Shown: positions 3,950 to 32,504, counted from the stretch's first letter. The stretch is DNA of 35,629 nucleotides from Dermatophilaceae bacterium (GCA_051650465.1 JBOFJB010000371.1:1-35629), one strand, 5' to 3'. Notes: generated by a model from the sequence alone, not told the origin. Numbers and translations are program-made.

Positions 3950-4036
3950 GGAGGATTCGCATAGTGGCCTAGTGCGCACGATTGGAAATCGTGTTGGGGA
4001 TGAAACCCCTCGCGGGTTCAAATCCCGCATCCTCCG
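3950..4036 (+). tRNA. tRNA-Ser (anticodon GGA), type II with long variable arm
   Basis: Cloverleaf read by hand. Acceptor GGAGGAT/ATCCTCC, anticodon stem CACGA/TCGTG with loop TTGGAAA, variable arm TTGGGGATGAAACCCCTC, T arm GCGGG-TTCAAAT-CCCGC, discriminator G. CCA is not encoded. Confidence 0.9.
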
Positions 4037-4043
4037 CCGACAT

Positions 4044-4128: not shown

Positions 4129-4518
4129 TCAGGACGGGACGACCACATCCGCGGACGGTGCGCCGCGCAGCCGACGGTCGGTGGTCACCAGGGGAACACC
4201 CAATAACCCGGCGAGCTGCACGTACACCGCGTCGACCAGCCGCAGTTGATGACGCCGCGCCCACGTGCCGAGGAGGAGGTCGGTCACCGGATGACGCCGG
4301 ATCGGTGCGGTGCGGAGTGCGTGGAGCCCGGACTCGACCCGGTCCGCCTCGAGGTCGCCGGCCCGGTGCAGCCGGCCCAGCGCCGAGAGCACCTCGGCGT
4401 CGAGATGAGCCGGCGCATGCAGCGCATGACCGGCGATCCGCCGGCGGACGGCGTGACCGTGCTCGTTGTCGAGGAGGAGGTCGACGAGCGCGGACGCGTC
4501 GAGCACCACCTCAGGCAT
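4129..4518 (-). CDS. vapC: PIN-domain ribonuclease toxin VapC
   Basis: MPEVVLDASALVDLLLD (PIN acidic residue), a central region, then LVTTDRRL near the C-terminus. I set the start at the ATG giving MPEVVLD. This start overlaps the upstream antitoxin stop by 8 nt (ATGCCTGA). Confidence 0.85.
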   Translation of the reverse strand: MPEVVLDASALVDLLLDNEHGHAVRRRIAGHALHAPAHLDAEVLSALGRLHRAGDLEADRVESGLHALRTAPIRRHPVTDLLLGTWARRHQLRLVDAVYVQLAGLLGVPLVTTDRRLRGAPSADVVVPS

Positions 4519-4744
4519 GGCGCGTCGGAGCGTCGTCCCGCGCGGCATCGAGCGCCGCCAGAGCACGATCGTGCGGCACGCGGGCGGATGACGCCGTCGT
4601 CGCCGACGCCGCGAGCCACGCGTCGGTGGAGCGGGCGGCGAGCGTGCGTCGCACCGCCTCCTGGGTCACCGCCGACAGATTGAGGCCGGCCTCTTTGGCC
4701 TCGGCCGCAAGCTCGTCCGGGAGGTATACGTTCACCCGCGTCAT
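4511..4744 (-). CDS. vapB: Ribbon-helix-helix (CopG/VapB-type) antitoxin
   Basis: MTRVNVYLPDELAAEAKEAGLNLSAVTQEAVRRTL is a typical RHH N-terminus. The gene overlaps vapC. An alternative ATG lies at 4762. Confidence 0.75.
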   Translation of the reverse strand: MTRVNVYLPDELAAEAKEAGLNLSAVTQEAVRRTLAARSTDAWLAASATTASSARVPHDRALAALDAARDDAPTRHA

Positions 4745-5118: not shown

Positions 5119-5823
5119 ATGAGCTCGGTGCCGACGCCGCGCGCCGGGTCGTGCGCCTTGCGCCGGGTGGTCGGCACCGAGCCGGTGACACGGGAGCTGT
5201 GGGGACCGGGCGACCCGGCCACGCTGCATCCGGACGAGGCAGCCGTGGTGCGCGCCGCTGTCGACGCGCGCCGGCGCGAGTTCGCCGCCGGTCGGGCCTG
5301 CGCCAGGTCGGCGCTCGAGGCACTGGGCCACCGCGGCATCCCGCTCGTGCCCGGCGCCGCGCGAGAGCCGCAGTGGCCGGCCGGCCTGGTCGGGAGCATC
5401 ACCCACGGTGGCGGCTACTCCGCGGCGGCGGTGGCGTCATCCGACCGCCTGCTCGCCATCGGGATCGACGTGGAGCCCGACGCCCCGCTGCCTGCCGAGC
5501 TCGACGACATCGTGATGACGGATGCCGAGCGGGCCGCGGTCGAGGCGCTCGCGGCACGAGACCCGCAGACGCCATGGAGCCGAATCGTGTTCAGCGCCAA
5601 GGAGTCCGTGTACAAGACGTGGTTCCCCCTGTGTCGGCGGGCCCTCTGGTTCCACCAGGCCACCGTGCATCCGGCCACCGACGGGACGTTCCGGGCACGC
5701 ATCCTCGAGGCGGATGCCGGCTCCTACCCTCGCGAGGTCGCCGGGAGCTGGAGCCGAGCGTCCGGGGTCCTCCTGACGGGAGTCGTGCTCTCCCACCGGG
5801 ACCAAGGCGTCATCCCCGGGTGA
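5119..5823 (+). CDS. 4'-phosphopantetheinyl transferase, EntD/Sfp type
   Basis: GSITHGGGYSAAAV, IGIDVEPD and FSAKESVYKTWFPL are the EntD/PptT-type motifs. The exact start is uncertain. Confidence 0.85.
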   Translation: MSSVPTPRAGSCALRRVVGTEPVTRELWGPGDPATLHPDEAAVVRAAVDARRREFAAGRACARSALEALGHRGIPLVPGAAREPQWPAGLVGSITHGGGYSAAAVASSDRLLAIGIDVEPDAPLPAELDDIVMTDAERAAVEALAARDPQTPWSRIVFSAKESVYKTWFPLCRRALWFHQATVHPATDGTFRARILEADAGSYPREVAGSWSRASGVLLTGVVLSHRDQGVIPG

Positions 5824-5884
5824 CGGGCGTCATCCCTGGGCGAAGGGCGTCATCCCTGGGCGAAGGGCGTCCTCCCCGGGTGGC
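5805..5884. repeat. 20-bp tandem repeat, 4 copies; the first copy is the last codons plus stop of the PPTase gene
   Basis: The four copies are ggcgtcatccccgggtgacg, ggcgtcatccctgggcgaag, ggcgtcatccctgggcgaag and ggcgtcctccccgggtggcc. Confidence 0.9.
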
Positions 5885-5930
5885 CGGCGCCGGTCGCACC
5901 GTGCCGCTGACGACCCCTCGCGGATGCCGC

Positions 5931-7460
5931 TCACTCGCCGGGTCTGGGCGTTCCGGCGAGGTCGACGACCGCCTGCCGGCTCACCTTTCCCGTGGGGGTG
6001 CGTGGGATGCGGGCGACGACGATGCGCACCGGTCGCTCGTAGGGCAGCAGCTCGCGCCGGCAGTGCTCGTGCAGCTCCTCCTCGGACGGCGCACCGCCGG
6101 CCACCGGCTCGACGACGCACACCGGGACGGCCCCGAGCCGAGCGTCGGGCCTGCTGACGACCACGGCCTCGTGCACCGCGGGGTGGTTCTCCAGCTCGTG
6201 CTCCACCCGGTCGGGCGACACGTTGAAGCCGCCCCTGACGATGACCGCGTCGACCCGGCCGAGGACCCAGAGGAACCCGTCGTCGTCCAGCCGGGCCCGA
6301 TCGGCGGTGCGGGTCCAGACCGCGCCCTCCGGCGCCTGTTCGGTGCGCACCTCGAGCACACCGACCGCACCGGGCGCGACGGGGCGACCACCCGCATCGA
6401 CGACCCTGAGCTCGACACCTGCGTGAGCGCGGCCCGCGCTACCGGCCTTCGCCGACCACCAGCTGCGGTACAGCTCCCTCGTCCAGCCGGCGACCGCACC
6501 GGCGAACTCGGTGGCCCCGTAGGTGGTGAGCACCGGCACGCCGTACCGCTCGGTGAACGCGGTCGCGACCGGCGTGGGACAGGCCGCGGCTCCGGTGGTG
6601 ACCAGACTGAGACTCGCCACCTGGTCGACCGGCACCTCGGCGTCGAGGACCGCGGCGATGGCCGCCGGCACCAGGAAGGTCGCCCGGATCCCGTGCGCCG
6701 CGACCGCGCGTGCCCACGCGTGCGGGTCGAACCGAGGCAGCACCACCACGGGACGGCCGCTGCTCAGCCCCCCGAGAAGCGACCACACGCCGGCGATGTG
6801 CTCGATGGGGTGGGAGACCAGCGTGGGCCGGGCGGACGGGCGCGCCTCGAGCTGCTCGCTGGAGCGTAGCGACGCGAGGACCTGGCGGTCGGTCAGCTGG
6901 ATGCGCTTGGGCCGGCCGGTGGTCCCTCCCGACCGGAGCTCGAGGAGCACGTCCGGGCGCACCGGCCCGTCGTGGCTACTGACCCGCGGTCCGGCCCGGC
7001 TGCTCTCCCGAACCACGGCGCGTCCGTCGTCGACCGTCAGCACGGCGTGGCCGTCACCTCCGGCTGCACCGACGAGGGCGGGGTCGCGGCGGGCAGTGTC
7101 GCCGCCGAGCACGACCGCCCGGGGAGCGGCATCGGCGAGTGCGGCGGTGAGCTCGTCGGCGGGCGTCCGAGCGGACAGCAGCAGGACGCACGACCCCCGG
7201 GTCACCGCGGCGAGCAGCGCGACGATCGGGTCGGCCTCGTTCTCCGCGAGCACTGCCACCGGGGATCGCGGCGGAGCCCCGGCATCGGCGAGCGCCCGGT
7301 CGACCGAGGCGGCGGCCTCGCGCAGCCGGGACCAGGTCCACGACCGGGACCCGACCGTGAGCGCCGTGCGCTGCGGGCGCTGGGCGCCGAGTCGATGTGC
7401 GAGCACCGAGACGACGGTCGAGTGTGGTGTCGACGGAACGGCGGCCTGGTCCATAGTCAC
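5931..7460 (-). CDS. Stand-alone adenylate-forming enzyme (acyl/aryl-AMP or CoA ligase)
   Basis: LRSGGTTGRPKRIQLT (EntE/DhbE-like SGGTTGxPK), TTYGATEFAG, RVDAVIVRGGFNVSPDRVE and PRTPTGKVSRQ are present. The start is GTG 7460 or ATG 7454. It is transcribed divergently from the NRPS. Confidence 0.85.
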   Translation of the reverse strand: MTMDQAAVPSTPHSTVVSVLAHRLGAQRPQRTALTVGSRSWTWSRLREAAASVDRALADAGAPPRSPVAVLAENEADPIVALLAAVTRGSCVLLLSARTPADELTAALADAAPRAVVLGGDTARRDPALVGAAGGDGHAVLTVDDGRAVVRESSRAGPRVSSHDGPVRPDVLLELRSGGTTGRPKRIQLTDRQVLASLRSSEQLEARPSARPTLVSHPIEHIAGVWSLLGGLSSGRPVVVLPRFDPHAWARAVAAHGIRATFLVPAAIAAVLDAEVPVDQVASLSLVTTGAAACPTPVATAFTERYGVPVLTTYGATEFAGAVAGWTRELYRSWWSAKAGSAGRAHAGVELRVVDAGGRPVAPGAVGVLEVRTEQAPEGAVWTRTADRARLDDDGFLWVLGRVDAVIVRGGFNVSPDRVEHELENHPAVHEAVVVSRPDARLGAVPVCVVEPVAGGAPSEEELHEHCRRELLPYERPVRIVVARIPRTPTGKVSRQAVVDLAGTPRPGE

Positions 7461-7467
7461 GCGAGTA

Positions 7468-7482
7468 TGATATTCATTATCA
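7468..7482. promoter_or_regulatory. Fur-family 7-1-7 operator candidate in the divergent ligase/NRPS promoter
   Basis: TGATATT-C-ATTATCA matches the classical 7-1-7 Fur box TGATAAT-N-ATTATCA with 1 mismatch in 14 defined positions. The 19-mer gagtatgatattcattatc matches GATAATGATAATCATTATC at 16/19. It lies in the only AT-rich patch of the 54-bp intergenic region and overlaps -10-like hexamers (TATGAT on plus, CATACT on minus). Confidence 0.6.
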
Positions 7483-7514: not shown

Positions 7515-10500
7515 GTGACGAACAGCTCAGTCGATCGCCGTGGTCCAAGCACTGCCACCGGAGCAGGTTCCGGCTCGGCCGTCGCCCTCACCGACCTCCA
7601 GGTCGCCTATCTTCTCGGGCGCCGCCCCGGCCCGGCCCTGGGCGGCATCCGCGCGTGCACCGGAGTCGAGATCCTCGTGCACGACGTCGACGACCGGGCG
7701 CTCGCAGCGTCGTACGCCGCGGTCACGGGGCGCTACGACGTCGTGGGCACCTCGGTCGTCGCCGAGGAGGCCCAGCTGCTGACACCACCCTCGCCACTGC
7801 GGCTGGACCTGGTCGACCTCAGCGGCGCCGAGCCGGCAGCACGCGAGGCCGCGCTCACCCGGGCGAGGGCAGCGCTCGAGGAGGCGCCGGATGCCGCGAT
7901 GCGGGCATCGGCGTACCGGGTCGGCGACGCGGTCCACGTCTTCGTCGTCATCGACCTGGTGCTGCTCGACCTGCCTGGTCTGCAGCAGGTGCTGGACGCG
8001 TGGGCCGCAGAGCTTCGCCGACCTACGCGGAGCCCGGACCCGGGTGCGCTGGGCGGCCTCGGTGACCAGCTGCGTGCCGTCGAGGCCGACACCTCAGGGC
8101 CGGCCGGTGAGCGCGCCCGCCGCCGATGGGAGGACGAGCTCGACACCCTGCCACCCGCGCCGGAGCTGCCGCTGGCCACTGCCCCGGAGTCCCTGGCGGG
8201 GCCGGCCGCACGTCACCTGACCTCGCGCATCTCGGCCGACGTCTGGACGCAGCTGCATGCCACAGCCAGGGCGAACGGCATCGACCCGGAGACGCTGCCG
8301 CTCCTCGCCCTCACCGAGGTCGTGCGCACGTGGTCGAAGGAGCCCGACTTCCGCCTCGCCGTGAGCTCGCGGCACCGCCCACCACCCGCCGACTCCCCGC
8401 CGGCGGCCGGTCAGCTCACCGTTCCCGGCATCGTGTCCGTCCGGGCGGCATCCACGTCCACCCTGCGCGAGCGGGCCGAGGCACTGCAGGAGCAGGCACG
8501 ACGGGCCGCCGACCTGAACGCCTACAGCGGCATCCAGGTGATGCGAGACCTCACCCGGCGACACGGCGGAACGCGCGCGACCGCCCCGGTGGTCCACACC
8601 TCCACTCTGGGTACCGGCGTTCCCGACGGGATCGGCGCCCTGGGCGAGCTGGTCACCCTCTCGACGAGGACCCCCCAGGTGTGGCTGGAGCACCAGGTGG
8701 TGGCGACCGGCGGCGGCCTGACGATCGGCTGGCACACCGTGGACGGCCTGCTCCGTCCCGGCGTCCTCGAGGCGATGGTGTCGGCTCACGACGAGCTCCT
8801 GCGGCGGATGGCGACCGACCCGGCGGTGTGGGACACGGCGGGCCGAGTGGTCGACCTGCCGGCCGACGCGGCCACCGAGCAGGCCGCGGTCAACGACACC
8901 GCGAGCGACATCCCACCGGCGCGGCTGCACGACCTGGTGGCGAACGCCGCCCGGCGTCATCCGAACGCCCCGGCCGTCATCCACGGGGACACCGTGACGA
9001 CGCACGGCACCCTGCACGATCGCGCCCTCCGGCTCGCCGGGCGGATCCAAGCCGTCGCCGCACCGCAGCCCGGCGAGCTGGTGGCCGTGATGCTCGGGGC
9101 CGGCACCGACCAGCTCGTGGCCGTCCTCGCCGTCCTGCACGCCGGCGGCGCCTACGTCGTCGTCGACCCGGCCCTGCCCGCCATCCGCCGTCGCGCGTTG
9201 ATCGAGCGCTGCCAGGTGTCGGTCGTCGTCAGCCGGGCGCAGGACGCGGCGGACACGGTGCCCGACGGCGTCACGGTGGTGCCGCCGACCGCGTCGCCGG
9301 ACCTGCCGACAGACGTGTCGGCGGGCCCGCCAACGGATGTGCCGGGAGCCGAGGACGGCGGCCCGCGGACCCCGGACGACCTGGCCTACGTCATCTTCAC
9401 CTCCGGCTCGACCGGCGAGCCGAAGGGCGTGGCGATCACCCACCGCAGTGCCGCGAACACGGTGCAGGACATCGTGCGCCGCTTCGACGTCACCGAGCGG
9501 GACCGCGTCCTGGCGCTCGCGCCGAGCACGTTCGACCTCTCCGTCTTCGACATCTTCGGCGTGCTCGGAGCCGGCGGGGCCGTCGTCATCCCCGACGCCG
9601 ACCGGGCCGGTGACCCCGACCACTGGGTCGACCTGGTCTCCGACCACGACGTCACGCTGTGGAACACCGTCCCGGCCCCGATGCGGCTGTACGCCGACGC
9701 GCTCGCCCGGCGCGCCGCCGATGGCCCGGTCACCGGGCCGCGCCTCGTGCTGCTCAGCGGCGACTGGATCCCGCTCGACCTGCCCGACCGCGTCCGCGAC
9801 GTGCTGCCGGATGCCGAGGTCGTCTCCCTCGGCGGCGCCACCGAGGGCTCGATCTGGTCCATCTGCCACCGGATCCGCGACGTCGACCCCAGCTGGACCA
9901 GCATCCCCTACGGGCGCGCGCTCGCGAATCAGACGATGCACGTCCTGGACCGATGGCGGCAGCCGTGCCCGACCTGGGTCACCGGCGAGATCCACATCGG
10001 CGGCGCCGGGGTCGCGGCTGGCTACTGGCGCGACGAGACCCGCACGGCCGAGCGCTTCATCCGGTCTCCCCGGACTGGCGCGCGGCTCTACCGCACCGGC
10101 GACCTCGGCCGGTTCCTCCCCGGCGGCGACATCGAGATCCTCGGCCGCGAGGACCTCCAGGTGAAGATCAACGGCTACCGGGTCGAGCTCGGCGAGGTGG
10201 AGGCGTGCCTGGCCGCCCTGCCCGGGGTCGACCAGGTCGTCGTCAGCGCACCGCCCCACCCGGGCACGGGCCAACGACAGGTGATCGCCCACGTCGTGCT
10301 CCGCGAGGACGGTCCCGACGAGGACGGCCCCGACGAGGCGGCGGTGCGGGCAGCAGCCGGGCAGCAGCTGCCCTCGTACATGGTGCCGAGCCGGGTCTTA
10401 CCGGTGCCGGCGGTGCCGCTCACCCCGAACGGCAAGGTCGACCGGGCCGCCCTCCCCGTGCCCTGGGGAGCCGACGAGCCGGCCCGGCCGGAGCCCGCGA

Positions 10501-10739
10501 GCCCCGTCGAGTCCGCGCTGCGGCAGATCTGGGTCGCCCAGCTCGGACACGACGAGTTCGGCACCGCCGACGGCTTCTTCGACGCGGGCGGCGACTCGCT
10601 GCACGCGGTCGGCATCCTGCGGGAGCTGCGCGAGCGGCTCTCGCTCTCCCCCGACCTGGAGCCGGACCTCGCCGAGGCGCTGTTCACGAACAGCGACATC
10701 GCCGGACTCGCCGAGATCATCGAGCGGGATGCCGCGTGA
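7515..10739 (+). CDS. Single-module NRPS, Cy-A-T (heterocyclization, Cys-type adenylation, thiolation); HlmE-like
   Basis: Cy motifs: LTDLQVAYLLGR, DLVLLDLPG (DxxxxD in place of HHxxxDG), LPPAPELP, TPQVWLEHQ. A motifs: LAYVIFTSGSTGEPKG, SLGGATEGSIWS, YRTGDLGRF, GREDLQVKINGYRVELGEVE, PLTPNGKVDR. T motif: FFDAGGDSLHAV. The specificity positions read by motif register give D-L-F-N-L-S-L-I-W-K, against the Cys code DLYNLSLIWK. The start is GTG 7515 after GAGGGGA. The track extension to 6972 overlaps the ligase gene. Confidence 0.9.
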   Translation: MTNSSVDRRGPSTATGAGSGSAVALTDLQVAYLLGRRPGPALGGIRACTGVEILVHDVDDRALAASYAAVTGRYDVVGTSVVAEEAQLLTPPSPLRLDLVDLSGAEPAAREAALTRARAALEEAPDAAMRASAYRVGDAVHVFVVIDLVLLDLPGLQQVLDAWAAELRRPTRSPDPGALGGLGDQLRAVEADTSGPAGERARRRWEDELDTLPPAPELPLATAPESLAGPAARHLTSRISADVWTQLHATARANGIDPETLPLLALTEVVRTWSKEPDFRLAVSSRHRPPPADSPPAAGQLTVPGIVSVRAASTSTLRERAEALQEQARRAADLNAYSGIQVMRDLTRRHGGTRATAPVVHTSTLGTGVPDGIGALGELVTLSTRTPQVWLEHQVVATGGGLTIGWHTVDGLLRPGVLEAMVSAHDELLRRMATDPAVWDTAGRVVDLPADAATEQAAVNDTASDIPPARLHDLVANAARRHPNAPAVIHGDTVTTHGTLHDRALRLAGRIQAVAAPQPGELVAVMLGAGTDQLVAVLAVLHAGGAYVVVDPALPAIRRRALIERCQVSVVVSRAQDAADTVPDGVTVVPPTASPDLPTDVSAGPPTDVPGAEDGGPRTPDDLAYVIFTSGSTGEPKGVAITHRSAANTVQDIVRRFDVTERDRVLALAPSTFDLSVFDIFGVLGAGGAVVIPDADRAGDPDHWVDLVSDHDVTLWNTVPAPMRLYADALARRAADGPVTGPRLVLLSGDWIPLDLPDRVRDVLPDAEVVSLGGATEGSIWSICHRIRDVDPSWTSIPYGRALANQTMHVLDRWRQPCPTWVTGEIHIGGAGVAAGYWRDETRTAERFIRSPRTGARLYRTGDLGRFLPGGDIEILGREDLQVKINGYRVELGEVEACLAALPGVDQVVVSAPPHPGTGQRQVIAHVVLREDGPDEDGPDEAAVRAAAGQQLPSYMVPSRVLPVPAVPLTPNGKVDRAALPVPWGADEPARPEPASPVESALRQIWVAQLGHDEFGTADGFFDAGGDSLHAVGILRELRERLSLSPDLEPDLAEALFTNSDIAGLAEIIERDAA

Positions 10740-12319
10740 CACGGGCGGGGTACGACCACGTGGTGATCGGCGGCGGGTCCGCGGGGTGCGTGCTGGCGGC
10801 GCGGCTCGCCGAGGCCGGACACGAGGTGCTGCTGCTCGAGAGCGGGCCCGACCGTACCGCCGGCGACCGGCCGGACGATCCGCTCCAGGACGCCTCGCGG
10901 CTCGTGCTCTCAGGCCACAACTGGGACCATCGGGTGAACCTGCACGGTTCGAACCGCTTCGAGCGGCTGGTCGCCGGCGACTCCGACGGGTCGACGGCCG
11001 CCACGGCATCCCGGTCGTCGCGGTCGCCCTACCCGCTCGGCAGGGTGATCGGCGGGTCGTCGGCGGTCAACGGCGCTCTCGCGCTCCGTGCGCTGCCACG
11101 CGACCTCGACCGCTGGGCCGAGCCCAGCGATGGCGCGTGGTCCTGGGACCAGGCCGCGCCGTGGTATGACCGGCTCGACCGGGAGGTGCCGATCACCCGT
11201 CCGGACGTGGCGACCCTGCATCCGGTCGATGCGGCCTTCCTCGCAGCGTGCCGGGCGCGTTCGGTCCCCGAGACCGACCTCAACGCCGGCGACCGCCCGG
11301 ACGGCCGCGGCGTGGGGGCCGCGCCCGGCAACGCCGTGGCCGGCCGTCGCGTCGACGCCGCCACGACGCACCTGCGTCCGGCGCGGTCGTCGCGTTCGCT
11401 CACGGTGCGGGGCGGCGTCCACGTCGACCGGGTCGAGATCCGACGCGGCCGCGTCGCAGGAGTGCGGGCCCTGGGCGCCGACGGCCCGGAGTCGGTCGCG
11501 ACGGGGTCGGTGCTGCTGTGCGCGGGCGCGATCGGCTCGCCCACGGTGCTCCAGCGCAGCGGTATCGGCCATCCGGGGCACCTGAGGCGGCTCGGTATCC
11601 CGGTCGTCGTGGACGCGCCGGCTGTCGGCGCCGACCTGGCCGACCACGTCTCGCTCGTCATCTGGGCCCGCGGCCACGGCGCTCCGGCCCCCCGCGACCG
11701 GTGGCGCGACGTGCTCGCCCGGCTGCCCGGCGGGCACGACCACGAGGTCGACGTGCAGATGGGGACGCTGCACGACGTCGACCCCGCCGCGATCCCCGGC
11801 TTCGCGGGTCGACTGCGCGGTACGGCCTTGCTCGGCATGTCGACGATGCTCATGCGCCCGGTGTCGCGCGGCAGGGTGTTCGTCACCACGCCGGACCCGC
11901 TGGCCCTGCCCGCCGTCGAGCTCGGGCTGCTCACCGAACGCGAGGACCTGAGCCGGCTCGCGGCCGGTGTCGCCACCGCGTGGGAGCTGCTGTGCGAACC
12001 ACCGGTGTCGCGCCAGGTGGCACAGGTGTACTCGTGGTCGGCCGGGATCGTGCAGCGGCCCGAGTCGCTGCGGTCGGCGGTCCGCCACCTCGCCGGCCCG
12101 GGCTGGCACGCGGCCGGGACCGCCGCGATGGGCCGAGTGGTCGACGGATGGTGTCGTGTAGCCGGTGTCGACGGCCTCCGCGTGGTCGACGCCTCGGTGT
12201 TCCCGACCATCCCCAGCACACCGACGAACCTCACCACGATGATGCTCGCCGAGCGGGTGGCCGCCGCGCTGGTCGGCGCATCGACACCCGCCGTCGCTGC
12301 CGGGGCGGTGGCGCGATGA
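10736..12319 (+). CDS. GMC-family FAD oxidoreductase; HlmD-like
   Basis: GYDHVVIGGGSAGCVLAARLAE (the ADP-binding fold), a C-terminal HAAGTAAMG and PTNLTTMMLAE are present. The GTG start overlaps the NRPS stop (GTGA). Confidence 0.9.
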   Translation: MTRAGYDHVVIGGGSAGCVLAARLAEAGHEVLLLESGPDRTAGDRPDDPLQDASRLVLSGHNWDHRVNLHGSNRFERLVAGDSDGSTAATASRSSRSPYPLGRVIGGSSAVNGALALRALPRDLDRWAEPSDGAWSWDQAAPWYDRLDREVPITRPDVATLHPVDAAFLAACRARSVPETDLNAGDRPDGRGVGAAPGNAVAGRRVDAATTHLRPARSSRSLTVRGGVHVDRVEIRRGRVAGVRALGADGPESVATGSVLLCAGAIGSPTVLQRSGIGHPGHLRRLGIPVVVDAPAVGADLADHVSLVIWARGHGAPAPRDRWRDVLARLPGGHDHEVDVQMGTLHDVDPAAIPGFAGRLRGTALLGMSTMLMRPVSRGRVFVTTPDPLALPAVELGLLTEREDLSRLAAGVATAWELLCEPPVSRQVAQVYSWSAGIVQRPESLRSAVRHLAGPGWHAAGTAAMGRVVDGWCRVAGVDGLRVVDASVFPTIPSTPTNLTTMMLAERVAAALVGASTPAVAAGAVAR

Positions 12320-13029
12320 CCGGCGTGCCCGTCTTCTGCTTCCCCCACGCCGGCGCCACCTCGGCGACGATGCGGCACTGGCCGGCGCTCTCCGGCGCCG
12401 ATCTCGACATCCGGCCGGTGGACCGCCCGGGACGTGGCCGCCTGGGCCGGGAGCCGGCCGGGCGCGACGCCGACGCCGTGGTGGCGCGCAGCGCCGAGGT
12501 CGTCGCGGAGCAGGTGCGGCCCGGCGACCGGTGGGTGTGCCTCGGACACAGCTTCGGCTCCCTGCTCGCCGCGGCCACGGCCGCCGAGGTGGCGCGGCGC
12601 ACCGGTCACGCCGCCGACCTCGTCGTGGTGTCGGCCGGCCCGCCCCCCGCCTGGCAGCCCACCGAGGACGAGATCGCACCCCTGGACGACGCCGCGCTCG
12701 ACGACCATCTCGTCGGCATCGGCGACACCCCGCGCACCGTGCTCGCGGGCCCGCTCGGCGCGGTGCTGCGCCGCCACTTCCGTGAGGACCAGGCGCTGCG
12801 GTGCCAGCTCGCCGGCCGACGCGACCTCAGGCTCACGACCGGGCTGCTCGCGGTCGCCGCCAGCGAGGACCCCTACGTCCCGGCCGGGCGGATGGCCGAC
12901 TGGGCGCCGCACACCAGGGGCCCGTTCGACCAGCTGACGGTCCACGGCGACCACTTCGCCGTGGTGCGCGACCCGAGCGAGGTGCTGGCCGTCATCCGCG
13001 GCAGGGTGCTGGAGGGGAGCCGAGCATGA
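12316..13029 (+). CDS. Type II thioesterase; HlmC-like
   Basis: VFCFPHAGATSATMRHW and the GHSFG nucleophile elbow are present. There is an ATGA overlap with the GMC gene stop. Confidence 0.85.
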   Translation: MTGVPVFCFPHAGATSATMRHWPALSGADLDIRPVDRPGRGRLGREPAGRDADAVVARSAEVVAEQVRPGDRWVCLGHSFGSLLAAATAAEVARRTGHAADLVVVSAGPPPAWQPTEDEIAPLDDAALDDHLVGIGDTPRTVLAGPLGAVLRRHFREDQALRCQLAGRRDLRLTTGLLAVAASEDPYVPAGRMADWAPHTRGPFDQLTVHGDHFAVVRDPSEVLAVIRGRVLEGSRA

Positions 13030-14159
13030 CCACGACGACCCTCCCTGGGCTCGACACCTTCCGGGCCACGGTGCGCGAGGTGCTGCACGAGCACGCCACG
13101 CCACACCACGACGCGTGGGAGCGCGAGGGGCGGACGCCGCGCGAGTTCTGGCGTGCCGCGGGCGCGGGCGGCCTGCTCGCGCCGGCCGCACCCCCGGAGC
13201 TCGGCGGTGCCGGGCTCACCGACCCGAGGTACGCGGCAGCCGTCGCGGAAGAGCTCGTGCGGGCCGGGCTGACCGCGCCCGGGATCGTCGCGCACAACGA
13301 CGTGGCGACCTCGTACGTCCTCGGCCGGGGCAGCTCCGAGCAGCGACGACGGTGGATGCCGGGCCTGGTCACCGGGGAGTGTGTGGCCGCCATCGCGATC
13401 ACCGAGCCGGGGGGTGGCTCCGACGTCGCAGCCATGGCCACCACGGCACGCCGCGACGGCGACCACTATGTGCTCGACGGCCGGAAGTCGTTCATCACCA
13501 ACGGCGAGACGGCCGATCTCGTGGTTGTCGCGGCCCGCACCGGCGACGGCCCGCGGGGCCTCAGCCTGGTCGTGGTGGAGCGGGGGACGCCGGGGCTCAC
13601 CCGTGGCGAGCAGCTCCCCACCCTGGGCTGGCGGGCGAACGACACCTGCGACCTGCGGTTCGACGGATGCCGGGTGCCGGCCGCCAACCTGCTGGGTAGC
13701 GAGGGCGCGGCCACCGCGGTGCTCATGCGCGCACTGCCCGCGGAGCGGGTGAGCATCGCGACGGTCGCGGTGACCTCGGCCGAGATGACCCTCGCCGCGG
13801 CCTTGACCCACGCACGCACCCGGACCGCGTTCGGCGGACCGATCGGCAGCCTTCAGCACAACCGGTTCGTGCTCGCGACGCTGGACACCGAGGTCACCAT
13901 CGCCCGGGTCTTCCTGGACCACTGCCTCGCGCAGCACGCCGCCGGCCGGCTCTCGGTCGCCGACGCGGCGAAGGCGAAGTGGTGGTGTACCGAGCTGCAG
14001 ACCCGCGTCGCCGACCGTGCCGTGCAGCTGCTCGGCGGACGCGGCTACCTCGACGACAACCCGGTGTCGCGGGAGTGGCTGAACAGTCGTGTGCAGACCA
14101 TCTACGGCGGCCCGACCGAGGTGATGAAGGAGCTGATCGGCCGCTCGCTCGGCCTCTGA
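13026..14159 (+). CDS. Acyl-CoA dehydrogenase family flavoenzyme; HlmB-like
   Basis: AAIAITEPGGGSDVA, KSFITNG and a C-terminal TIYGGPTEVMKELIGRSL are present. There is an ATGA overlap with the thioesterase stop. Confidence 0.9.
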   Translation: MTTTTLPGLDTFRATVREVLHEHATPHHDAWEREGRTPREFWRAAGAGGLLAPAAPPELGGAGLTDPRYAAAVAEELVRAGLTAPGIVAHNDVATSYVLGRGSSEQRRRWMPGLVTGECVAAIAITEPGGGSDVAAMATTARRDGDHYVLDGRKSFITNGETADLVVVAARTGDGPRGLSLVVVERGTPGLTRGEQLPTLGWRANDTCDLRFDGCRVPAANLLGSEGAATAVLMRALPAERVSIATVAVTSAEMTLAAALTHARTRTAFGGPIGSLQHNRFVLATLDTEVTIARVFLDHCLAQHAAGRLSVADAAKAKWWCTELQTRVADRAVQLLGGRGYLDDNPVSREWLNSRVQTIYGGPTEVMKELIGRSLGL

Positions 14160-14172
14160 CCAGGGCCTCTTC

Positions 14173-14280
14173 CCGAACCGACCGAACCGACGATCCCGAC
14201 CAACCAGCCGAACCCGACCGAACCGACGATCCCGACTAACCCGCCGAACCCGACCACAGCGACCCGAACCGACCGAACCC
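14173..14280. repeat. About 36-bp tandem repeat, about 3 copies, rich in CCGAAC/CCGACC hexamers; lies in the only sizeable gap of the operon
   Basis: The copies are ccgaaccgaccgaaccgacgatcccgaccaaccag, ccgaacccgaccgaaccgacgatcccgactaacccg and a degenerate third copy. Confidence 0.8.
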
Positions 14281-14315
14281 GCGCTGATCCCGATCCGACC
14301 CAGCAGGAGGACACG

Positions 14316-15230
14316 ATGACCACCGTCGACGACTCGTTGCAGCACCACAACCGCGAGGCCGGCCGCAGCACCTACGACATGTCCGGCTTCACCGTCGAGG
14401 TCGCCACCGCGCAGGACTGGCAGATCGTCACCGAGTGGGGCAACGGCGAGAACTGGAACATCGGCCCCCAGGACGCCGAGTGCTTCCGGACGATCGACCC
14501 GGAGGGCTTCTTCCTCGGCCGGGTCGAGGGCCGGCCGGTGTCGGCGGTCTCGCTGCTCAACTACTCCGACGACTTCGCGGTGTGGGGCCACTACCTCGTC
14601 GCACCCGACGAGCGCGGCAAGGGTTACGGCATCGAGGTGTGCAAGACCGCCAGCCGGCACTCCGGCCAGCGGGTCACCGCCGGTGACGCGATGCCCGAGC
14701 AGGTCGACAACTACGCCAAGGACGGCTCCCGGCCCGCGCACCGCACCGTGCACTGGTTCGGCACGGTCGCCCCGACCGACTCGGAGCCGGCGGACAGCAT
14801 CCGCGAGGTGACCGCGGCCGACCTGAATGCCGTCGCCGACTACGAGGCCGAGGCGTTCCCCGCCCACCGCCGCCGGTTCCTGGAACGGTGGCTCTTCGCC
14901 GACGGGCACCGCGCGCTGCTCGCGACCGGCGCGGATGGCGCGGTCGCCGGCTTCGGCGTGGTGCGGCCTGCACCGCGGGGCCATCGGGTCGGCCCGCTGG
15001 TGGCGAACACGCCGGAGCTGGCCGGGGCGCTGCTGCGCGCCCTGGTCGCCGGACTGCCCGCGGGAGAGGAGCTGTCGGTGTTCGCACCCGACCACAACGA
15101 GGCGACCGAGGGCCTGCTGCGCTCGGCCGGCCTCGCCCCGCACTTCCACGTGGTGCGCATGTATCGCGGCGAGCCGCGTCCGCACCACGCCGAGCGGGTC
15201 TACGCCATCAGCAGCCTGGAGGTGGGCTGA
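14316..15230 (+). CDS. GNAT-family N-acyltransferase (two-lobed); candidate HlmA/HolE-type holothin acyltransferase
   Basis: ATG lies 6 nt after AGGAGG. HYLVAPDERGKGYGIEV is a GNAT motif-A-like Q/RxxGxG/A segment, and the C-terminal half resembles the second acetyltransferase-like lobe. The functional assignment rests on context only. Confidence 0.7.
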   Translation: MTTVDDSLQHHNREAGRSTYDMSGFTVEVATAQDWQIVTEWGNGENWNIGPQDAECFRTIDPEGFFLGRVEGRPVSAVSLLNYSDDFAVWGHYLVAPDERGKGYGIEVCKTASRHSGQRVTAGDAMPEQVDNYAKDGSRPAHRTVHWFGTVAPTDSEPADSIREVTAADLNAVADYEAEAFPAHRRRFLERWLFADGHRALLATGADGAVAGFGVVRPAPRGHRVGPLVANTPELAGALLRALVAGLPAGEELSVFAPDHNEATEGLLRSAGLAPHFHVVRMYRGEPRPHHAERVYAISSLEVG

Positions 15231-15691
15231 TGGCCGAGGTGCCCACCCTGTACGAGTGGGTGGGCGGACAGCAGGTGCTGGACCGGCTGATGACCGAGTT
15301 CTATCGCACCGTGCGGCAGGACGAGCTGCTCAGGCCGCTGTTCGCCCACATGCCCGCCGACCACCCGCAGCATGTCGCGATGTGGTTCGCCGAGGTGTTC
15401 GGCGGCCCCGCCCGCTACTCCGCCGAACGCGGTGGCTTCGCGGTGATGCGCGGCCATCACGTCGGGAAGGACATCACGCCGGAGCAGCGTGAGCGATGGG
15501 TGAGCCTGCTGCTGCGCGCGGCCGACACCGTCGGCATCCCGGATGACGCCGAGTTCCGGTCCGCGTTCGCCGCGTACGTGGAGTGGGGGTCCCGGCGGGC
15601 GATGGCGAACTCCAGGCCGGGCGCGCCCCTGTCGTCCCGCACCGACGCACCGATCTGGGGCTGGGGCGAGGCCCCGCCCGGCACCGACTGA
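15230..15691 (+). CDS. Group II truncated hemoglobin-like globin; HlmG-like
   Basis: PTLYEWVGGQQVLDRLMTEFYRTVRQDELLRPLF and HVAMWFAEVFGGPARY are typical of trHb/YjbI-type globins. The ATG shares 1 nt with the GNAT stop (TGATG). Confidence 0.8.
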   Translation: MAEVPTLYEWVGGQQVLDRLMTEFYRTVRQDELLRPLFAHMPADHPQHVAMWFAEVFGGPARYSAERGGFAVMRGHHVGKDITPEQRERWVSLLLRAADTVGIPDDAEFRSAFAAYVEWGSRRAMANSRPGAPLSSRTDAPIWGWGEAPPGTD

Positions 15692-15704
15692 GTGAGGACA
15701 CCGA

Positions 15705-16613
15705 ATGCACACCTGTGACGTCGCGGTCGTCGGCGGCGGCGCCGCCGGCCTGACCGCGGCCCTGCTGCTCGCCCGCGCCCGCCGCGACGTGGTCGTCGTC
15801 GACGCGGGCGAGCCGCGCAACGCGCCGGCACTCCATGCGCGGGGCTACCTGAGCCGGGACGACAGCTCGCCCGCGGACATCCTCGCCGCCGGGCGGGCCG
15901 AGGTGGTCGGGTACGGCGGCACGGTCCGCGAGGGCCGCGTCGACCGGGTGGATGCCGAGCGGACCCTGCATCTCGCGGACGGCGAGCGCCTGCGGGCCGC
16001 GCGGGTGCTGGTGGCGACCGGGCTGGTCGACCGGCTGCCGGCCGTGCCGGGTGTTGCGGAGCGGTGGGGCCGCGACGTGCTGCACTGCCCGTACTGCCAC
16101 GCGTGGGAGGTGCGTGACCAGCCGCTCGTCGTACTCGGGACCCATCCCAACGCGGTGCACCACGCGCTGCTGCTGCGGCAGTGGAGCGCCGAGGTGACCC
16201 TCGCCACGCACGAGCTGGACCCCACGGCCGAGGACCGGGTCGCGCTGGCCGCCCGCGGCGTGGCCGTCGCCGAGGGCCCGGTGGCCGAGGTGGTGGTCGG
16301 CGGCGACGCGGTCACCGGCGTTCGGGTGGATGGCGAGGTGCACCCGTGCCGCGCGGTGTTCCTCTTCCCCCACATGGCGCCGCGCGACGACTTCCTGGGC
16401 GAGCTGGGCGTCGAGCGCGACCCGCGCGGCTTCCCGGTCGTCGACGCGGGCGGCCGCACCTCGGTGCCGTGGGTCTACGTCGCCGGCAACGCGACCGACC
16501 CGCGCGCCCAGGTGGTCACCGCCGCCGGACAGGGCTCCGCCGTCGCGTTCGCACTGCACAACGAGCTGGTCGCCGACGAGGTCGCCCGCGCCGTCGCGGA
16601 GCACGGGCGATGA
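15705..16613 (+). CDS. Thioredoxin-reductase-like FAD oxidoreductase with CPYC redox motif; candidate HlmI/GliT/DepH-type dithiol oxidase
   Basis: DVAVVGGGAAGLTAALLLAR is the FAD fold, and HCPYCHAWE is a CxxC redox centre. The size is about 300 aa. Confidence 0.85.
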   Translation: MHTCDVAVVGGGAAGLTAALLLARARRDVVVVDAGEPRNAPALHARGYLSRDDSSPADILAAGRAEVVGYGGTVREGRVDRVDAERTLHLADGERLRAARVLVATGLVDRLPAVPGVAERWGRDVLHCPYCHAWEVRDQPLVVLGTHPNAVHHALLLRQWSAEVTLATHELDPTAEDRVALAARGVAVAEGPVAEVVVGGDAVTGVRVDGEVHPCRAVFLFPHMAPRDDFLGELGVERDPRGFPVVDAGGRTSVPWVYVAGNATDPRAQVVTAAGQGSAVAFALHNELVADEVARAVAEHGR

Positions 16614-17632
16614 CCGGGGCCGACGCCGCCTGGCGGCTGTGGGAGATGAGCGACCTGACCGCGCCGTGGGCGCTGCGGGTCGTGTGCACCCTCGGCGTCG
16701 CCGATCTCGTGGCCGACGGCTGCGACCGGGTGGACGACCTCGCCGAACGGACCGGCACCGACGCCGCCGCCCTGGCCCGGGTGCTGCGCCACCTCGCTGC
16801 GCGAGGCGTGGTCGCCGAGCCGGAACCGGGTCGGTTCTCGCTCACCGAGGCCGGGGAGTGCCTGCGCGACGGCCACCCGAGCCGGATGCGGGAGTGGCTG
16901 AGCACCGACGGCGCGGCCGGCCGCATGGACGAGGTGTACGCGGCGCTGCTGACCAGCGTCCGCACCGGCGAGCCCGCGTACCGCGCGATCCACGGCCGGT
17001 CGTTCTACGACGACCTTCACGCGCAGCCCGCCCTGCAGCGCTCGTTCGACGAGCTGATGCGCGAGGACTCGGTGGACTACGCCCCGATCGTCGAGCAGCA
17101 GGACTGGTCGACCACGCGGCACGTGGTGGATGTCGGCGGCGGCCACGGCGAGCTGCTCGGGCACCTCCTGCGCACCCACGAGCACCTGCGCGGCACGCTC
17201 TTCGAGCTTCCCGGCACGGCCGACGCGGCGCGCGCGCATCTCGCCCCGCTCGGCGACCGTGCCGCCGTCGAGGCAGGCTCGTTCCTCGACGGGGTGCGGC
17301 CGGCCGGAGCCGACGGCTACGTCCTGGCGTCCGTGCTGCACAACTGGAGCGATGCCGACGCGGCCACCATCCTGCGCCGCGTCGCCGAGGCCGCCGCCCC
17401 CGGCGCGCGGGTCCTCGTCGTGGAGAACGTCGTCGACGAGACCACCGACTCCAGGTGGGTCACCCACCTGGACCTGAAGATGCTCGTGCTGCTCGGCGGC
17501 CGCGAGCGCACCGTCGCGGAGTACGAGGCGCTGGGCGAGGCCACCGGGCTGCGCGCGACCGGCGCCACGGCGGTCGCCCGCGGACCGTTCATGCTGCCCA
17601 GCGCGGTGATCGGGTTCACCGCCGGTGGATGA
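16610..17632 (+). CDS. SAM-dependent methyltransferase, COMT/Methyltransf_2 type with N-terminal winged-helix dimerisation domain
   Basis: VVDVGGGHGELL is the SAM motif I, and VLHNWSDADA is the LHDW-type catalytic His segment. There is an ATGA overlap with the upstream flavoenzyme. Confidence 0.85.
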   Translation: MTGADAAWRLWEMSDLTAPWALRVVCTLGVADLVADGCDRVDDLAERTGTDAAALARVLRHLAARGVVAEPEPGRFSLTEAGECLRDGHPSRMREWLSTDGAAGRMDEVYAALLTSVRTGEPAYRAIHGRSFYDDLHAQPALQRSFDELMREDSVDYAPIVEQQDWSTTRHVVDVGGGHGELLGHLLRTHEHLRGTLFELPGTADAARAHLAPLGDRAAVEAGSFLDGVRPAGADGYVLASVLHNWSDADAATILRRVAEAAAPGARVLVVENVVDETTDSRWVTHLDLKMLVLLGGRERTVAEYEALGEATGLRATGATAVARGPFMLPSAVIGFTAGG

Positions 17633-18632
17633 CGCTCCGGCTCGCCCTCGCGCGCCGCGGTGGCTCGGCCCCGTGCTCTCCTTCGCCGCCTCGGCCGTGA
17701 CGCTGACCGTGCTGTGCGTCGTGCTCCCCCGGGTCATGCCGGGCGATCCGCTGTCGGCGCTGTGGACCGAGGGGGCGCGGGAGTACGTGTACGACGACGC
17801 CGAGCGCGCCGCGCTCCGGGCGTCCTACGGTGGCGACCGGCCGCTCGCGCAGCAGGTCGTGGGCGATCTCGGCAGGCTGTTCGGTGGCGACCTCGGCGTG
17901 TCGATCCGATACGACGAGCCGGTCGCGGGTCTGCTCGGCGAGCGGCTGCCCCGCACCGTGCTGCTCGTGGGCTCGGCGATGGTGCTCGGCGTGACCCTCG
18001 GGGCGTCCGGCGGCGCCGTCGCCGGGTGGTGGCGGGGCGGGCCGATCGACCGTTCGGGGCTCGCCGTCGTGACGCTGGTGCGCGCGACGCCGACGTTCTT
18101 CCTCGCGGCCCTGGCGTTGTACGCGTTCGCGGTCCACCTGTCGTGGTTCCCGGTCTCGGGTCACGCGTCGCCGTTCCGCGAGCCGGATGCCGGGCCCCTC
18201 GCGGTCGTGGGCGACCTGCTCCATCACCTGGCGCTACCGGCCGCGGTGCTGGCGGCTACCGTCGCCGCCGGGCAGTTCCTCGTCCTGCGTGCCTCCATGC
18301 TGACCCAGCGTCGGGCCAGGCACCTGCTCGGCGCCCGCGCCCGCGGGGCGAGCGAAGGCCAGGTGCTGCGCCGGCACGCCGCACGAGGGGCCGCCCCGCC
18401 CGGGGTGGCGCTGGCCGGCATCCAGGCGGGTGCCGTGATGACCGGCGCGGTGGTGGTGGAGTCGGTGTTCGCGTACCCGGGGCTCGGTGAGCTGCTGGTC
18501 GATGCCGTCTCCTACCGCGACTACCCGGTGATGCAGGGCGCGTTCCTCACCCTGACGCTGACCGTCCTGGTCGCGAACCTGGCGGCCGACCTCGCGCTGC
18601 GCCGGCTGGACCCCAGGGTCGGGGCGCCGTGA
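17625..18632 (+). CDS. ABC transporter permease, DppB/OppB/NikB type
   Basis: VMPGDPLSALW is at the N-terminus, followed by multiple TM segments and SVFAYPGLGELLVDAV (EAA-region-like). The GTG start overlaps the methyltransferase stop by 8 nt. Confidence 0.85.
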   Translation: MDDAPARPRAPRWLGPVLSFAASAVTLTVLCVVLPRVMPGDPLSALWTEGAREYVYDDAERAALRASYGGDRPLAQQVVGDLGRLFGGDLGVSIRYDEPVAGLLGERLPRTVLLVGSAMVLGVTLGASGGAVAGWWRGGPIDRSGLAVVTLVRATPTFFLAALALYAFAVHLSWFPVSGHASPFREPDAGPLAVVGDLLHHLALPAAVLAATVAAGQFLVLRASMLTQRRARHLLGARARGASEGQVLRRHAARGAAPPGVALAGIQAGAVMTGAVVVESVFAYPGLGELLVDAVSYRDYPVMQGAFLTLTLTVLVANLAADLALRRLDPRVGAP

Positions 18633-19450
18633 GCGTGCGGCTGCGTCCGTGGCTGCCGGCCCTGCCGCTGGTGGTGCTGTCGGTGTGTGCGGTCGGTGCG
18701 CCGTGGCTCGCACCTGCCGACCCGGCCGCACCGATCGGCCCAGCACTGGCCGGCCCGTCGGCCGGACATCCGCTCGGCACGACGTCGATCGGGCAGGACG
18801 TGCTCTCCAGGGTCATGTGGGGCGGCCGGGTCTCGCTCACCGTCGCCGCAGTCGTCGCCGTGGCCTCGGTGTCGGTCGGGACCGTGGCCGGGGCCACCGC
18901 GGGGCTCCTCGACGGGCGCCTCGACACCACGGTGTGCCGTGTCGTCGACACCGTCGTGGCGGTGCCGCGACTGCCGCTGCTGGTCGTGGTGGCGGCGCTC
19001 GCCGGGCCGGGGCCGGTCACCGTCGCGCTCACGCTCGCTGCGCTCACCTGGGCTCCGGTGGCTCGAGTGGTGCGAGGCCAGGCACTCGCGCTGCGCACCG
19101 CCGGCCACGTGGCCGCCGCGCGTGGTCTCGGTGCCGGCCGCAGGCACCTGCTGCGCGTCCACGGTGTGCCCGCGCTGGTGCCGCTGGTCGGTGCGGAAGT
19201 GGCGACGGTCGCCGCCGGAGCCGTGCTCGCCGAGGCCGGGCTGGCGTTCCTCGGTCTCGCCGCCGGCGACACGGTGAGCTGGGGTGGCGACCTGCATCGC
19301 ACCCTCACCGAGCCGGGCGTGCTGCTGACCACGGCGTGGCTGTGGTGGGCCGTACCGACCGGGCTCGCCGTCACGCTGACGATCGGCTCGCTCGTCGCCG
19401 TGGGCGCACGGCTCGGCACCCCGTCCTCCCGCCTGGGGTGGTCGTCGTGA
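18629..19450 (+). CDS. ABC transporter permease, DppC/OppC/NikC type
   Basis: HPLGTTSIGQDVLSRVMWGGRVSL is the typical DppC N-terminal motif. There is a GTGA overlap with the upstream permease. Confidence 0.85.
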   Translation: MSVRLRPWLPALPLVVLSVCAVGAPWLAPADPAAPIGPALAGPSAGHPLGTTSIGQDVLSRVMWGGRVSLTVAAVVAVASVSVGTVAGATAGLLDGRLDTTVCRVVDTVVAVPRLPLLVVVAALAGPGPVTVALTLAALTWAPVARVVRGQALALRTAGHVAAARGLGAGRRHLLRVHGVPALVPLVGAEVATVAAGAVLAEAGLAFLGLAAGDTVSWGGDLHRTLTEPGVLLTTAWLWWAVPTGLAVTLTIGSLVAVGARLGTPSSRLGWSS

Positions 19451-21318: not shown

Positions 21319-21341
21319 CCACCACCATGTGAAGGAGCATC

Positions 21342-24014: not shown

Positions 24015-24140
24015 CTCAGCCGTGGCGGGGCTCAGCCGTCCCGGCCGTGGCGGGGCTCAGCCGTCCCGGCCGTGGCGGGGCTCAGCCGTCCCGGCCGCTC
24101 CTGACCGTGGCGGCGCTCAGCCGTCTCGGCCGTAGATCTC
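24015..24140. repeat. 25-bp tandem array (about 4-5 copies, one with a 10-bp insert); the last copy is the stop codon plus last codons of the minus-strand HFCD gene
   Basis: The unit ctcagccgtcccggccgtggcgggg occurs at 24031-24055 and 24056-24080. A variant lies at 24081-24115. The copy starting at 24116 (ctcagccgtctcggccgtag) contains the stop codon and final codons of the HFCD gene. A partial copy lies at 24015-24030. Confidence 0.85.
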
Positions 24141-24698: not shown

Positions 24699-24795
24699 GA
24701 GACCATTCTGGGCGGCCGGCCGAGCCGCGGCAACCGCAATGCGCGGGACACCGTCGAGTGACGTCGACAAGCACGTCCGTCGCTACCCTTACGGC

Positions 24796-25119
24796 ATGAG
24801 GAGCGAGCCGACATCGGAGACGCTGCGGCTACGGGCGGTCCTCGATCGGCACCAGAGCGGTGTGGGCGCGGTGCTCGACCGGTTCGGCGCCACCAACCCG
24901 CGGTTGTTCGGGTCCGTCGCTCGCGGCGACGCTCGGGACGACAGCGATCTCGACCTTCTCGTCGACCTGAGTCCTGGCCGTGGCAACGAGCTGATGCGCG
25001 TTGCCGGCCTCGCCGAGGAGCTCAGCGAGCTTCTGGGGATTCGCGTCGATGTCGTGGCCGCGACGCTTCTCCGCGACAACGTCTCGGCCACCGCTCTCGA
25101 GGATGCCGTGGCCGTATGA
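24796..25119 (+). CDS. mntA: Nucleotidyltransferase-domain antitoxin (MNT/MntA type)
   Basis: LFGSVARGDARDDSDLDLLVDL is the GSxxRG...DxD minimal nucleotidyltransferase motif. The start is set at ATG 24796. Confidence 0.85.
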   Translation: MRSEPTSETLRLRAVLDRHQSGVGAVLDRFGATNPRLFGSVARGDARDDSDLDLLVDLSPGRGNELMRVAGLAEELSELLGIRVDVVAATLLRDNVSATALEDAVAV

Positions 25120-32413: not shown

Positions 32414-32417
32414 TGAG

Positions 32418-32504
32418 CGGTGGCGGTGGGATTTGAACCCACGGACGGGTTGCCCCGTCACACGCTTTCGAGGCGTGCTCCTTAGGCCGCTCGGACACGC
32501 CACC
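32418..32504 (-). tRNA. tRNA-Ser (anticodon CGA), type II
   Basis: The reverse complement reads GGTGGCG-TG-TCCGAGCGGCCTAAGGA-G-CACGC-CTCGAAA-GCGTG-(variable arm TGACGGGGCAACCCGTCC)-GTGGG-TTCAAAT-CCCAC-CGCCACC-G. Confidence 0.9.

Follow-up and report, generated by a model that had tools for sequence, protein, structure and literature searches.

The dithiolopyrrolone (DTP) antibiotics, among them holomycin, thiolutin, the xenorhabdins and thiomarinol, differ chiefly in their N-acyl group, which tunes activity. In thiomarinol biosynthesis, TmlU makes an acyl-CoA (coenzyme A) ester and HolE transfers the acyl group to holothin (PMC5577590), and in the literature searched this is the only acid-activating pair described for a DTP. 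Here we analyse a stretch of 35,629 nucleotides from a Dermatophilaceae bacterium (GCA_051650465.1 JBOFJB010000371.1:1-35629; the window, meaning the whole stretch) in which a DTP cluster is accompanied by a stand-alone adenylate-forming ligase of 509 aa (5931-7460, minus strand) and, convergent with it, a 4'-phosphopantetheinyl transferase (PPTase; 5119-5823, plus strand). Based on comparison with related loci, it is reasonably likely that the ligase is an acyl-CoA synthetase recruited to a subclass of DTP clusters to work specifically with one clade of GNAT acyltransferases, and these clusters would probably attach a non-acetyl acyl group to the DTP core.

The holomycin (hlm, Streptomyces clavuligerus), thiolutin (dtp/hom) and xenorhabdin (xrdA-H) clusters have the same core gene set and order as the window. 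This core consists of an NRPS (non-ribosomal peptide synthetase) with heterocyclization, adenylation and thiolation domains (Cy-A-T), a GMC oxidoreductase, a thioesterase, an acyl-CoA dehydrogenase (ACAD), a GNAT, a globin, a flavoprotein and a dithiol oxidase; with all of its members in place, the gene set of the window is a complete DTP cluster. It is also syntenic with the pTML1 hol genes and the Xenorhabdus xrd genes, the ACADs being 49-52% and the NRPSs ~40% identical. Compared with hlm, dtp/hom and xrd, the window cluster adds the ligase, the PPTase, two methyltransferases and an Opp-type importer, and in the literature searched no ligase is mentioned in the published descriptions of those three clusters.

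The original prediction saw a thiomarinol-like logic in this locus. As an analogy (acid to acyl-CoA to N-acyl DTP) the comparison holds, as in Pseudoalteromonas sp. SANK 73390 (pTML1) an enzyme of the same class I adenylate-forming (ANL) type turns a free acid into an acyl-CoA from which an Acetyltransf_18 GNAT acylates the holothin amine. Homology to TmlU or HolE does not follow from it. The two ANL enzymes of pTML1 (654 aa and 445 aa, either of which may be TmlU) show 28% and 22% identity to the ligase of the window, and both lie outside its family. Orthology to TmlU was therefore rejected, and the window is thiomarinol-like by analogy only. HolE forms a separate GNAT clade with XrdE (support 100/100) and is 34% identical to the window GNAT. 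A review gives 45% identity between HlmA and HolE. Thiomarinol moreover has a polyketide pathway for its acid, whereas none lies beside the window cluster. By these comparisons the window-type pair is analogous to TmlU/HolE and non-orthologous. A DUF2938 gene lies beside the 654-aa acyl-CoA synthetase of pTML1 (L036 30713-31231; L numbers denote the loci compared).

The original prediction had a stand-alone adenylating enzyme with the motif SGGTTGRPK, and the open reading frame (ORF) bears this out. Third-position GC is high in frame, and the product matches Pfam AMP-binding (PF00501, 3.9e-54) and AMP-binding_C (PF13193, 9.2e-15). SGGTTGRPK is contained in the A3 motif LRSGGTTGRPKRI at residues 176-188, and A5, A7, A8 and A10 are intact (YGATE at 314, TAD at 385, GRVDAVIVRGG at 401 and PTGKVSR at 489). 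The ligase is a member of the ANL superfamily. An AlphaFold 2 (AF2) model with a pLDDT of 89.6 has the ANL fold, and each of its 50 best Foldseek matches is an ANL enzyme. The best matches in the PDB and in Foldseek are oxalyl-, feruloyl-, malonyl- and o-succinylbenzoyl-CoA synthetases and FadD5; among solved structures, oxalyl-CoA synthetase (AAE3) scores 4e-37, FadD5 1e-33, and feruloyl-CoA synthetase and MenE ~1e-30. A length of 509 aa is ordinary for a fatty acyl-CoA ligase (FACL), and FadD5 and FadD13 (7e-28) outscore FadD10 (2.5e-21) in the comparison of FACLs with fatty acyl-AMP ligases. Every NCBIfam model stayed below its cut-off, the best being the 'long-chain-fatty-acid--CoA ligase' subfamily. 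In a maximum-likelihood tree the ligase falls within an 86-sequence family (support 100/100) that excludes EntE, FadK, FadD and MenE of E. coli as well as both pTML1 ANL enzymes. On this evidence the ligase belongs to a FadD-like acyl-CoA synthetase family and is itself a predicted acyl-CoA synthetase.

Within this family the closest full-length relatives are 43-47% identical to the window ligase, and several of them stand in DTP clusters. The same family holds FadD-type synthetases encoded in beta-oxidation-like operons of Actinobacteria (e.g. in Streptomyces sp. NPDC048179, L002); its FadD-type members from Streptomyces and Nocardia have the same fold and core motifs at 43-47% identity. The sister clade of the ligase sits in such beta-oxidation-type operons, with the nearest non-DTP relatives 46% identical. 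The two groups differ in context, catabolic in one and biosynthetic in the other, and in one residue of the substrate pocket. At position 262, the equivalent of Stachelhaus position 278, all nine ligases with a known DTP or GNAT context have Phe, as do five clade mates, whereas another 18 family members, the FadD-type operon enzymes among them, have Ser, Asn or Gly; this stretch aligns unambiguously. The pocket alignment was validated on EntE, which reads N-Y-S-A-Q-G-V at the Stachelhaus-equivalent positions, and on the A domain of the window NRPS, which reads DLFNLSLIW, a Cys code. In the same alignment the ligase reads I-A-W-F-T-G-T and lacks the aryl-acid pocket residues. In EntE/DhbE-type ligases, specificity for 2,3-dihydroxybenzoate (DHB) or salicylate is encoded by N235, Y236, S240 and others. 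The double Gly of A3 is private to the window ligase, its relatives having SSGTTG or TSGTTG, and GGTTG also occurs in E. coli FadD, so that this feature is uninformative on aryl substrates.

Ligases of this family are found in seven independent actinobacterial DTP clusters, the window included, which belong to several orders. The gene diverges from the NRPS in four of them, overlaps the start of the GNAT in two, and is again divergent in one further case on a short fragment. Besides the window and a 94%-identical metagenome-assembled genome (MAG), the divergent arrangement occurs in Natronosporangium hydrolyticum (L027) and in metagenome contigs L029, L040 and L041. In Amycolatopsis albispora (L034) and contig L035 the ligase lies within the DTP operon, its stop overlapping the GNAT start. 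The genes past the ligase vary between clusters and can be an aminotransferase, PIG-L/ROK genes, or an amidase and a flavin-containing monooxygenase.

The pair also extends beyond Actinobacteria. Five Xenorhabdus loci contain a ligase 35-37% identical to that of the window, directly followed by a GNAT 40-42% identical to the window GNAT. One of these cassettes lies beside the xrd core (strain DI), one on a plasmid of strain TH1, and three, each in a different species, in loci lacking a DTP core; in two of these three cases the genome carries its xrd core on a different contig. The order of the cassette is ligase1-GNAT-ligase2 (L004 10001-14021; L008, L009), and in strain DI another DUF2938 gene lies ~1.5 kb past it (L004 15552-16049). 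Its second ligase is 51% identical to a second ligase of A. albispora (L034 10001-14916), which suggests that a three-gene module was transferred between phyla. The A. albispora DTP cluster continues with a 908-aa AMP-binding/cytochrome P450 fusion and then a ferredoxin (L034 14913-17856), the ANL part of the fusion sharing 58% identity with the second of the L035 ligases.

The acyltransferases follow the same division. All ten ligase-linked GNATs in the trees form one clade that includes the window GNAT (14316-15230, plus strand; support 99 in a quick tree and 97/83 in a careful one), and 11 of the 12 members of this clade whose context was checked are ligase-linked, with L040 counted. The window protein, a GNAT as originally predicted and a match to Pfam Acetyltransf_18 (2.4e-24), shares Pfam family and operon position with the DTP N-acyltransferases, yet its clade is separate from that of XrdE and HolE; the xrd core retains XrdE as its own GNAT, 27-31% identical to the window GNAT. 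Identity matrices of ligases and GNATs correlate with r = 0.87 over 11 pairs, a value reached by none of 5000 permutations, and in both trees the Xenorhabdus proteins nest beside the Amycolatopsis and L035 copies. These correlated identities, the matching nesting and the shared second ligase make it seem that the ligase-GNAT module moved as a unit. A further GNAT, 47% identical to that of the window, lies in Streptomyces celluloflavus NRRL B-2493 (L025 10001-10840) with no DTP core within 10 kb. This species is a producer of thiolutin and aureothricin.

Two more comparisons concern the core. A DTP core at the end of the linear plasmid NZ_CP045703 of Streptomyces finlayi (L037, 1-23340) comprises flavoprotein, NRPS, GMC oxidoreductase, thioesterase, ACAD, thioredoxin-reductase-like (TrxR-like) and globin genes; neither a GNAT nor a family ligase lies within 23 kb of it, so that it is uninformative on the pairing. 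Plasmid ACAD matches in Streptomyces NBC_00536, Pseudonocardia and Nonomuraea proved not to be DTP clusters.

Taken together, the ligase would adenylate a free carboxylic acid and pass the acyl group to CoA. The acid would be hydrophobic and neither DHB nor salicylate; a non-hydroxylated aromatic acid would still be conceivable. With this acyl-CoA as donor, the GNAT at 14316-15230 would then acylate the exocyclic amine of the holothin/pyrrothine core, which the NRPS, GMC oxidoreductase, thioesterase, ACAD, flavoprotein and oxidase assemble, and the product would be an N-acyl DTP other than plain holomycin. We infer CoA as the acceptor since no carrier protein was seen, the sister clade sits amid beta-oxidation genes, and the ligase-GNAT pair is found away from NRPSs; that the GNAT acts on holothin and that the acyl group is not acetyl are likewise predictions from sequence. 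The presence of a dedicated ligase suggests, but does not prove, an acid whose CoA ester is not available from primary metabolism. Of the original proposal that ligase and GNAT together install an unusual acyl or aryl group, the pairing is thus upheld by repeated co-occurrence and matching phylogeny, the aryl type is not, and a new hybrid molecule stays a prediction.

Several observations weigh against this interpretation. XrdE produces C6-C9 xenorhabdins with no ligase in its cluster, so a ligase is not required for non-acetyl DTPs and its presence is no proof of an unusual acyl group. One member of the ligase-linked GNAT clade (L039) is solitary, with neither a ligase nor DTP genes in its vicinity. 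The window ligase itself groups with the L029 ligase and P0043 on long branches, outside the main clade of DTP-linked ligases; that these ligases all share one origin is neither rejected nor shown (approximately unbiased test, p = 0.24), and the L040 ligase resembles a catabolic Streptomyces enzyme (59%) slightly more than it does other DTP-linked ligases. Finally, the amide-bond synthetases McbA and ShABS are among the sequence and structural neighbours of the ligase, so that direct amidation without CoA is possible from sequence.

Such a synthetase, in the style of NovL, SimL or McbA, would join the acid directly to the DTP amine and leave the GNAT only to acetylate. TmlU was at first predicted to work in this way, but it turned out to be a CoA ligase (PMC5577590). 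For the window ligase, CoA synthetases rank above amide synthetases in both sequence and structure matches, the sister clade lies amid CoA-dependent beta-oxidation genes, and the tight, repeated coupling of ligase and GNAT, down to overlapping start and stop codons, is what would be expected of a pair in which one enzyme supplies the donor for the other. Foldseek on the AF2 model confirms the ANL fold, a level at which CoA ligases and amide synthetases are not separated. Direct amidation thus keeps a slim chance.

Alternatively, the ligase could load the acyl group onto the T domain of the NRPS, with the Cy domain starting from N-acyl-Cys (lipo-initiation) and the neighbouring PPTase as part of the scheme. 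The position of the ligase next to the NRPS with a common promoter region, a Cy domain without an upstream donor carrier, and the adjacent PPTase all fit this idea; direct loading of the T domain had been raised in the original prediction as an alternative. The scheme is nonetheless quite improbable, since in Xenorhabdus the ligase-GNAT pair occurs without a nearby NRPS, including on a plasmid, and in L034 and L035 the ligase adjoins the GNAT and not the NRPS; the family relatives are CoA ligases, and the PPTase is not conserved with the ligase. No PPTase was found beside the ligase in L027, L029 or L040, the three related clusters with a known flank past the ligase, and the proposed functional tie between the two genes is therefore not sustained.

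The PPTase itself is as predicted. The 234-aa protein matches 4PPT_N (PF17837; 8.4e-25, 87 bits) and ACPS (PF01648; 3.5e-13, 50 bits), both above cut-off, and is an Sfp/EntD/PptT-type (group II) enzyme; its nearest solved structures are mycobacterial PptT (~1e-34) and EntD (1.5e-20), and the NCBIfam PptT, Npt and EntD equivalog or exception models match below their cut-offs. Most simply, it primes the single NRPS T domain and has no specific tie to the ligase. A six-frame scan for G.DS[LIVMFAT] found one carrier-type site in a real gene, the GGDSL of the NRPS T domain at 10587. The other two matches were GGDSA in a 475-aa ORF without Pfam domains (887-2314) and a site in a 37-codon ORF with low third-position GC. 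PP-binding matched no scanned ORF besides the NRPS. The scan thus agrees with the earlier claim that no free carrier protein is visible in the window. The convergent gap between PPTase and ligase measures 107 bp, and much of it is filled by a 20-bp tandem repeat, GGCGTCATCCCCGGGCGAAG in 3.8 copies (5806-5880; Tandem Repeats Finder score 115, 90% matches), that starts in the last codons and stop of the PPTase. Given its place between a tRNA-Ser/toxin module on one side and the ligase on the other, the PPTase may have come in together with the cluster.

A third possibility is that a housekeeping or catabolic CoA ligase for fatty acids has come to lie here by chance, or that the ligase is one half of an Acs/Pat-style pair whose GNAT acylates its catalytic lysine. 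Ligase-GNAT regulatory pairs exist in general, and the nearest non-DTP relatives do stand in beta-oxidation-like operons. Against this, the linkage is kept in seven DTP clusters that come from different orders and have differing flanks, the DTP-linked ligases share a specific pocket residue, and the window spacer has a conserved box in common with L029. The recurrent co-occurrence of ligase and GNAT in DTP clusters indicates that the ligase belongs to the cluster, and a housekeeping role, the outcome that would have undone the original prediction, is very improbable. The Acs/Pat-style pairing was rejected, as the GNAT is a homologue of XrdE and HolE, acyltransferases that act on small molecules, and not of Pat-type protein acetyltransferases.

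Weakest is the idea that the ligase, as its A3 motif had hinted, is an EntE/DhbE-type aryl-acid ligase installing a benzoyl or hydroxybenzoyl group: SGGTTGRPK does resemble SGGTTGTPK of E. coli EntE, a fellow ANL enzyme, and Saccharothrix fed with benzoate can make benzoyl-pyrrothines (review), but the fully supported separation from EntE in the tree, matches to DhbE/EntE-type structures of only ~1e-20 versus 1e-37 for acyl-CoA synthetases, the differing pocket, the private double Gly found also in FadD and the lack of an aryl carrier protein in the window contradict the hint and make it extremely improbable.

The spacer from which ligase and NRPS diverge places the acyl-CoA synthetase predicted here next to the control region of the biosynthetic operon. 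The ligase start (GTG at 7460 or ATG at 7454) and the NRPS start (GTG at 7515) are ~54 bp apart, and the metal box originally noted between them is a 7-1-7 palindrome of Fur-family (Zur-like) type, TGATATT-C-ATTATCA (7467-7482), which we regard as a putative regulator site. The window, L001/L006 (L001 being its near-identical MAG relative) and the ligase/NRPS spacer of L029 (3485-3499) have the 15-mer ATGATATTCATTATC without a difference; cluster proteins of the window and L029 are only 46-61% identical. The box was not found in the spacers of L027, L034, L035 and L040. Divergence from one short spacer with a conserved Fur-family box makes it probable that ligase and biosynthetic operon are co-regulated.

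The remaining genes were mapped by third-position GC analysis and domain searches (Pfam, NCBIfam) in a window of 74% G+C, the nearest public relative of which is a Dermatophilaceae MAG contig with proteins 94-100% identical. The DTP NRPS (7515-10739, plus strand, as are the following genes up to the second methyltransferase) has a Cys-type A domain and a highly divergent Cy domain, to which Pfam Condensation matches at E 0.034 and 13 bits (within 7515-9000). Condensation is also missing from the precomputed Pfam lists of the NRPSs of L001 and L029, and is listed for those of L027, L034, L035, L040 and Xenorhabdus sp. DI (L004). The GMC flavin oxidoreductase (HlmD/HolB-like; 10736-12319), matched by NCBIfam GMC and choline dehydrogenase models, starts with a GTGA overlapping the NRPS stop and is syntenic in every related locus. 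It is followed by a type II thioesterase (12316-13029; Pfam Thioesterase 4e-22), an ACAD (HlmB/HolD-like; 13026-14159) with three Pfam ACAD domains and 49-71% identity to the ACADs of other DTP clusters, and, past the GNAT, a truncated globin (HlmG-like; 15230-15691; Bac_globin 3.7e-12) and a TrxR-like dithiol oxidase (HlmI-like; 15705-16613; Pyr_redox_2 1.8e-29). A PPC (phosphopantothenoylcysteine) decarboxylase-like flavoprotein (HlmF/HolG-like; 24117-24770, minus strand; Pfam Flavoprotein 1.3e-17) completes the core, with NCBIfam coaBC and coaC models matching below cut-off.

Between oxidase and flavoprotein lie further genes identified with Pfam. A COMT-type methyltransferase (Methyltransf_2/Dimerisation; 16610-17632), a type also present in the L027, L029 and L034 clusters, precedes an Opp/Dpp-type ABC importer made up of a pair of permeases, a fused ATPase and a binding protein of the SBP_bac_5 type (17625-22997). 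This importer is kept in three window-type DTP clusters (the window, L029 at 13344-18568 and L040 at 14261-19462), and the L040 cluster additionally has an ABC-2 exporter. The second methyltransferase (22994-23974) has a homologue in L029 that is 60% identical. A pair of tRNA-Ser genes flanks the block carrying the DTP cluster, with PIN (VapC-like) toxin and HepT-like RNase genes inside (sites 3950-4038, 4129-4566, 25116-25430 and 32417-32504); the first tRNA-Ser (3950-4038) is on the plus strand and the PIN toxin (4129-4566) on the minus strand.

A wider and more tentative reading, possible though doubtful, is that the ligase-GNAT pair, accompanied in some lineages by another ligase, forms a mobile module that chooses the acyl group and has moved between Actinobacteria and Xenorhabdus. 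It would define an undescribed, widespread DTP subclass in which the acyl group is set by the pocket marked by Phe262, and perhaps the window-type products, under a Fur/Zur metal switch and with an Opp importer, would act as thiol metallophores that are recaptured, and not only as antibiotics.

If the pairing of ligase and GNAT holds true, it would be a second ligase-acyltransferase pair of DTP biosynthesis, non-orthologous to the first and recurrent in several actinobacterial orders and in Xenorhabdus. New N-acyl DTPs would then be predicted in the culturable N. hydrolyticum and A. albispora and in several Xenorhabdus. The GNAT clade together with a ligase carrying Phe at the pocket position would serve as a marker for genome mining, and the two genes as a compact tool to swap the acyl group. 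The pair may also represent the long-assumed enzymes that convert fed organic acids to acyl-CoA donors for DTP acylation in actinomycetes.

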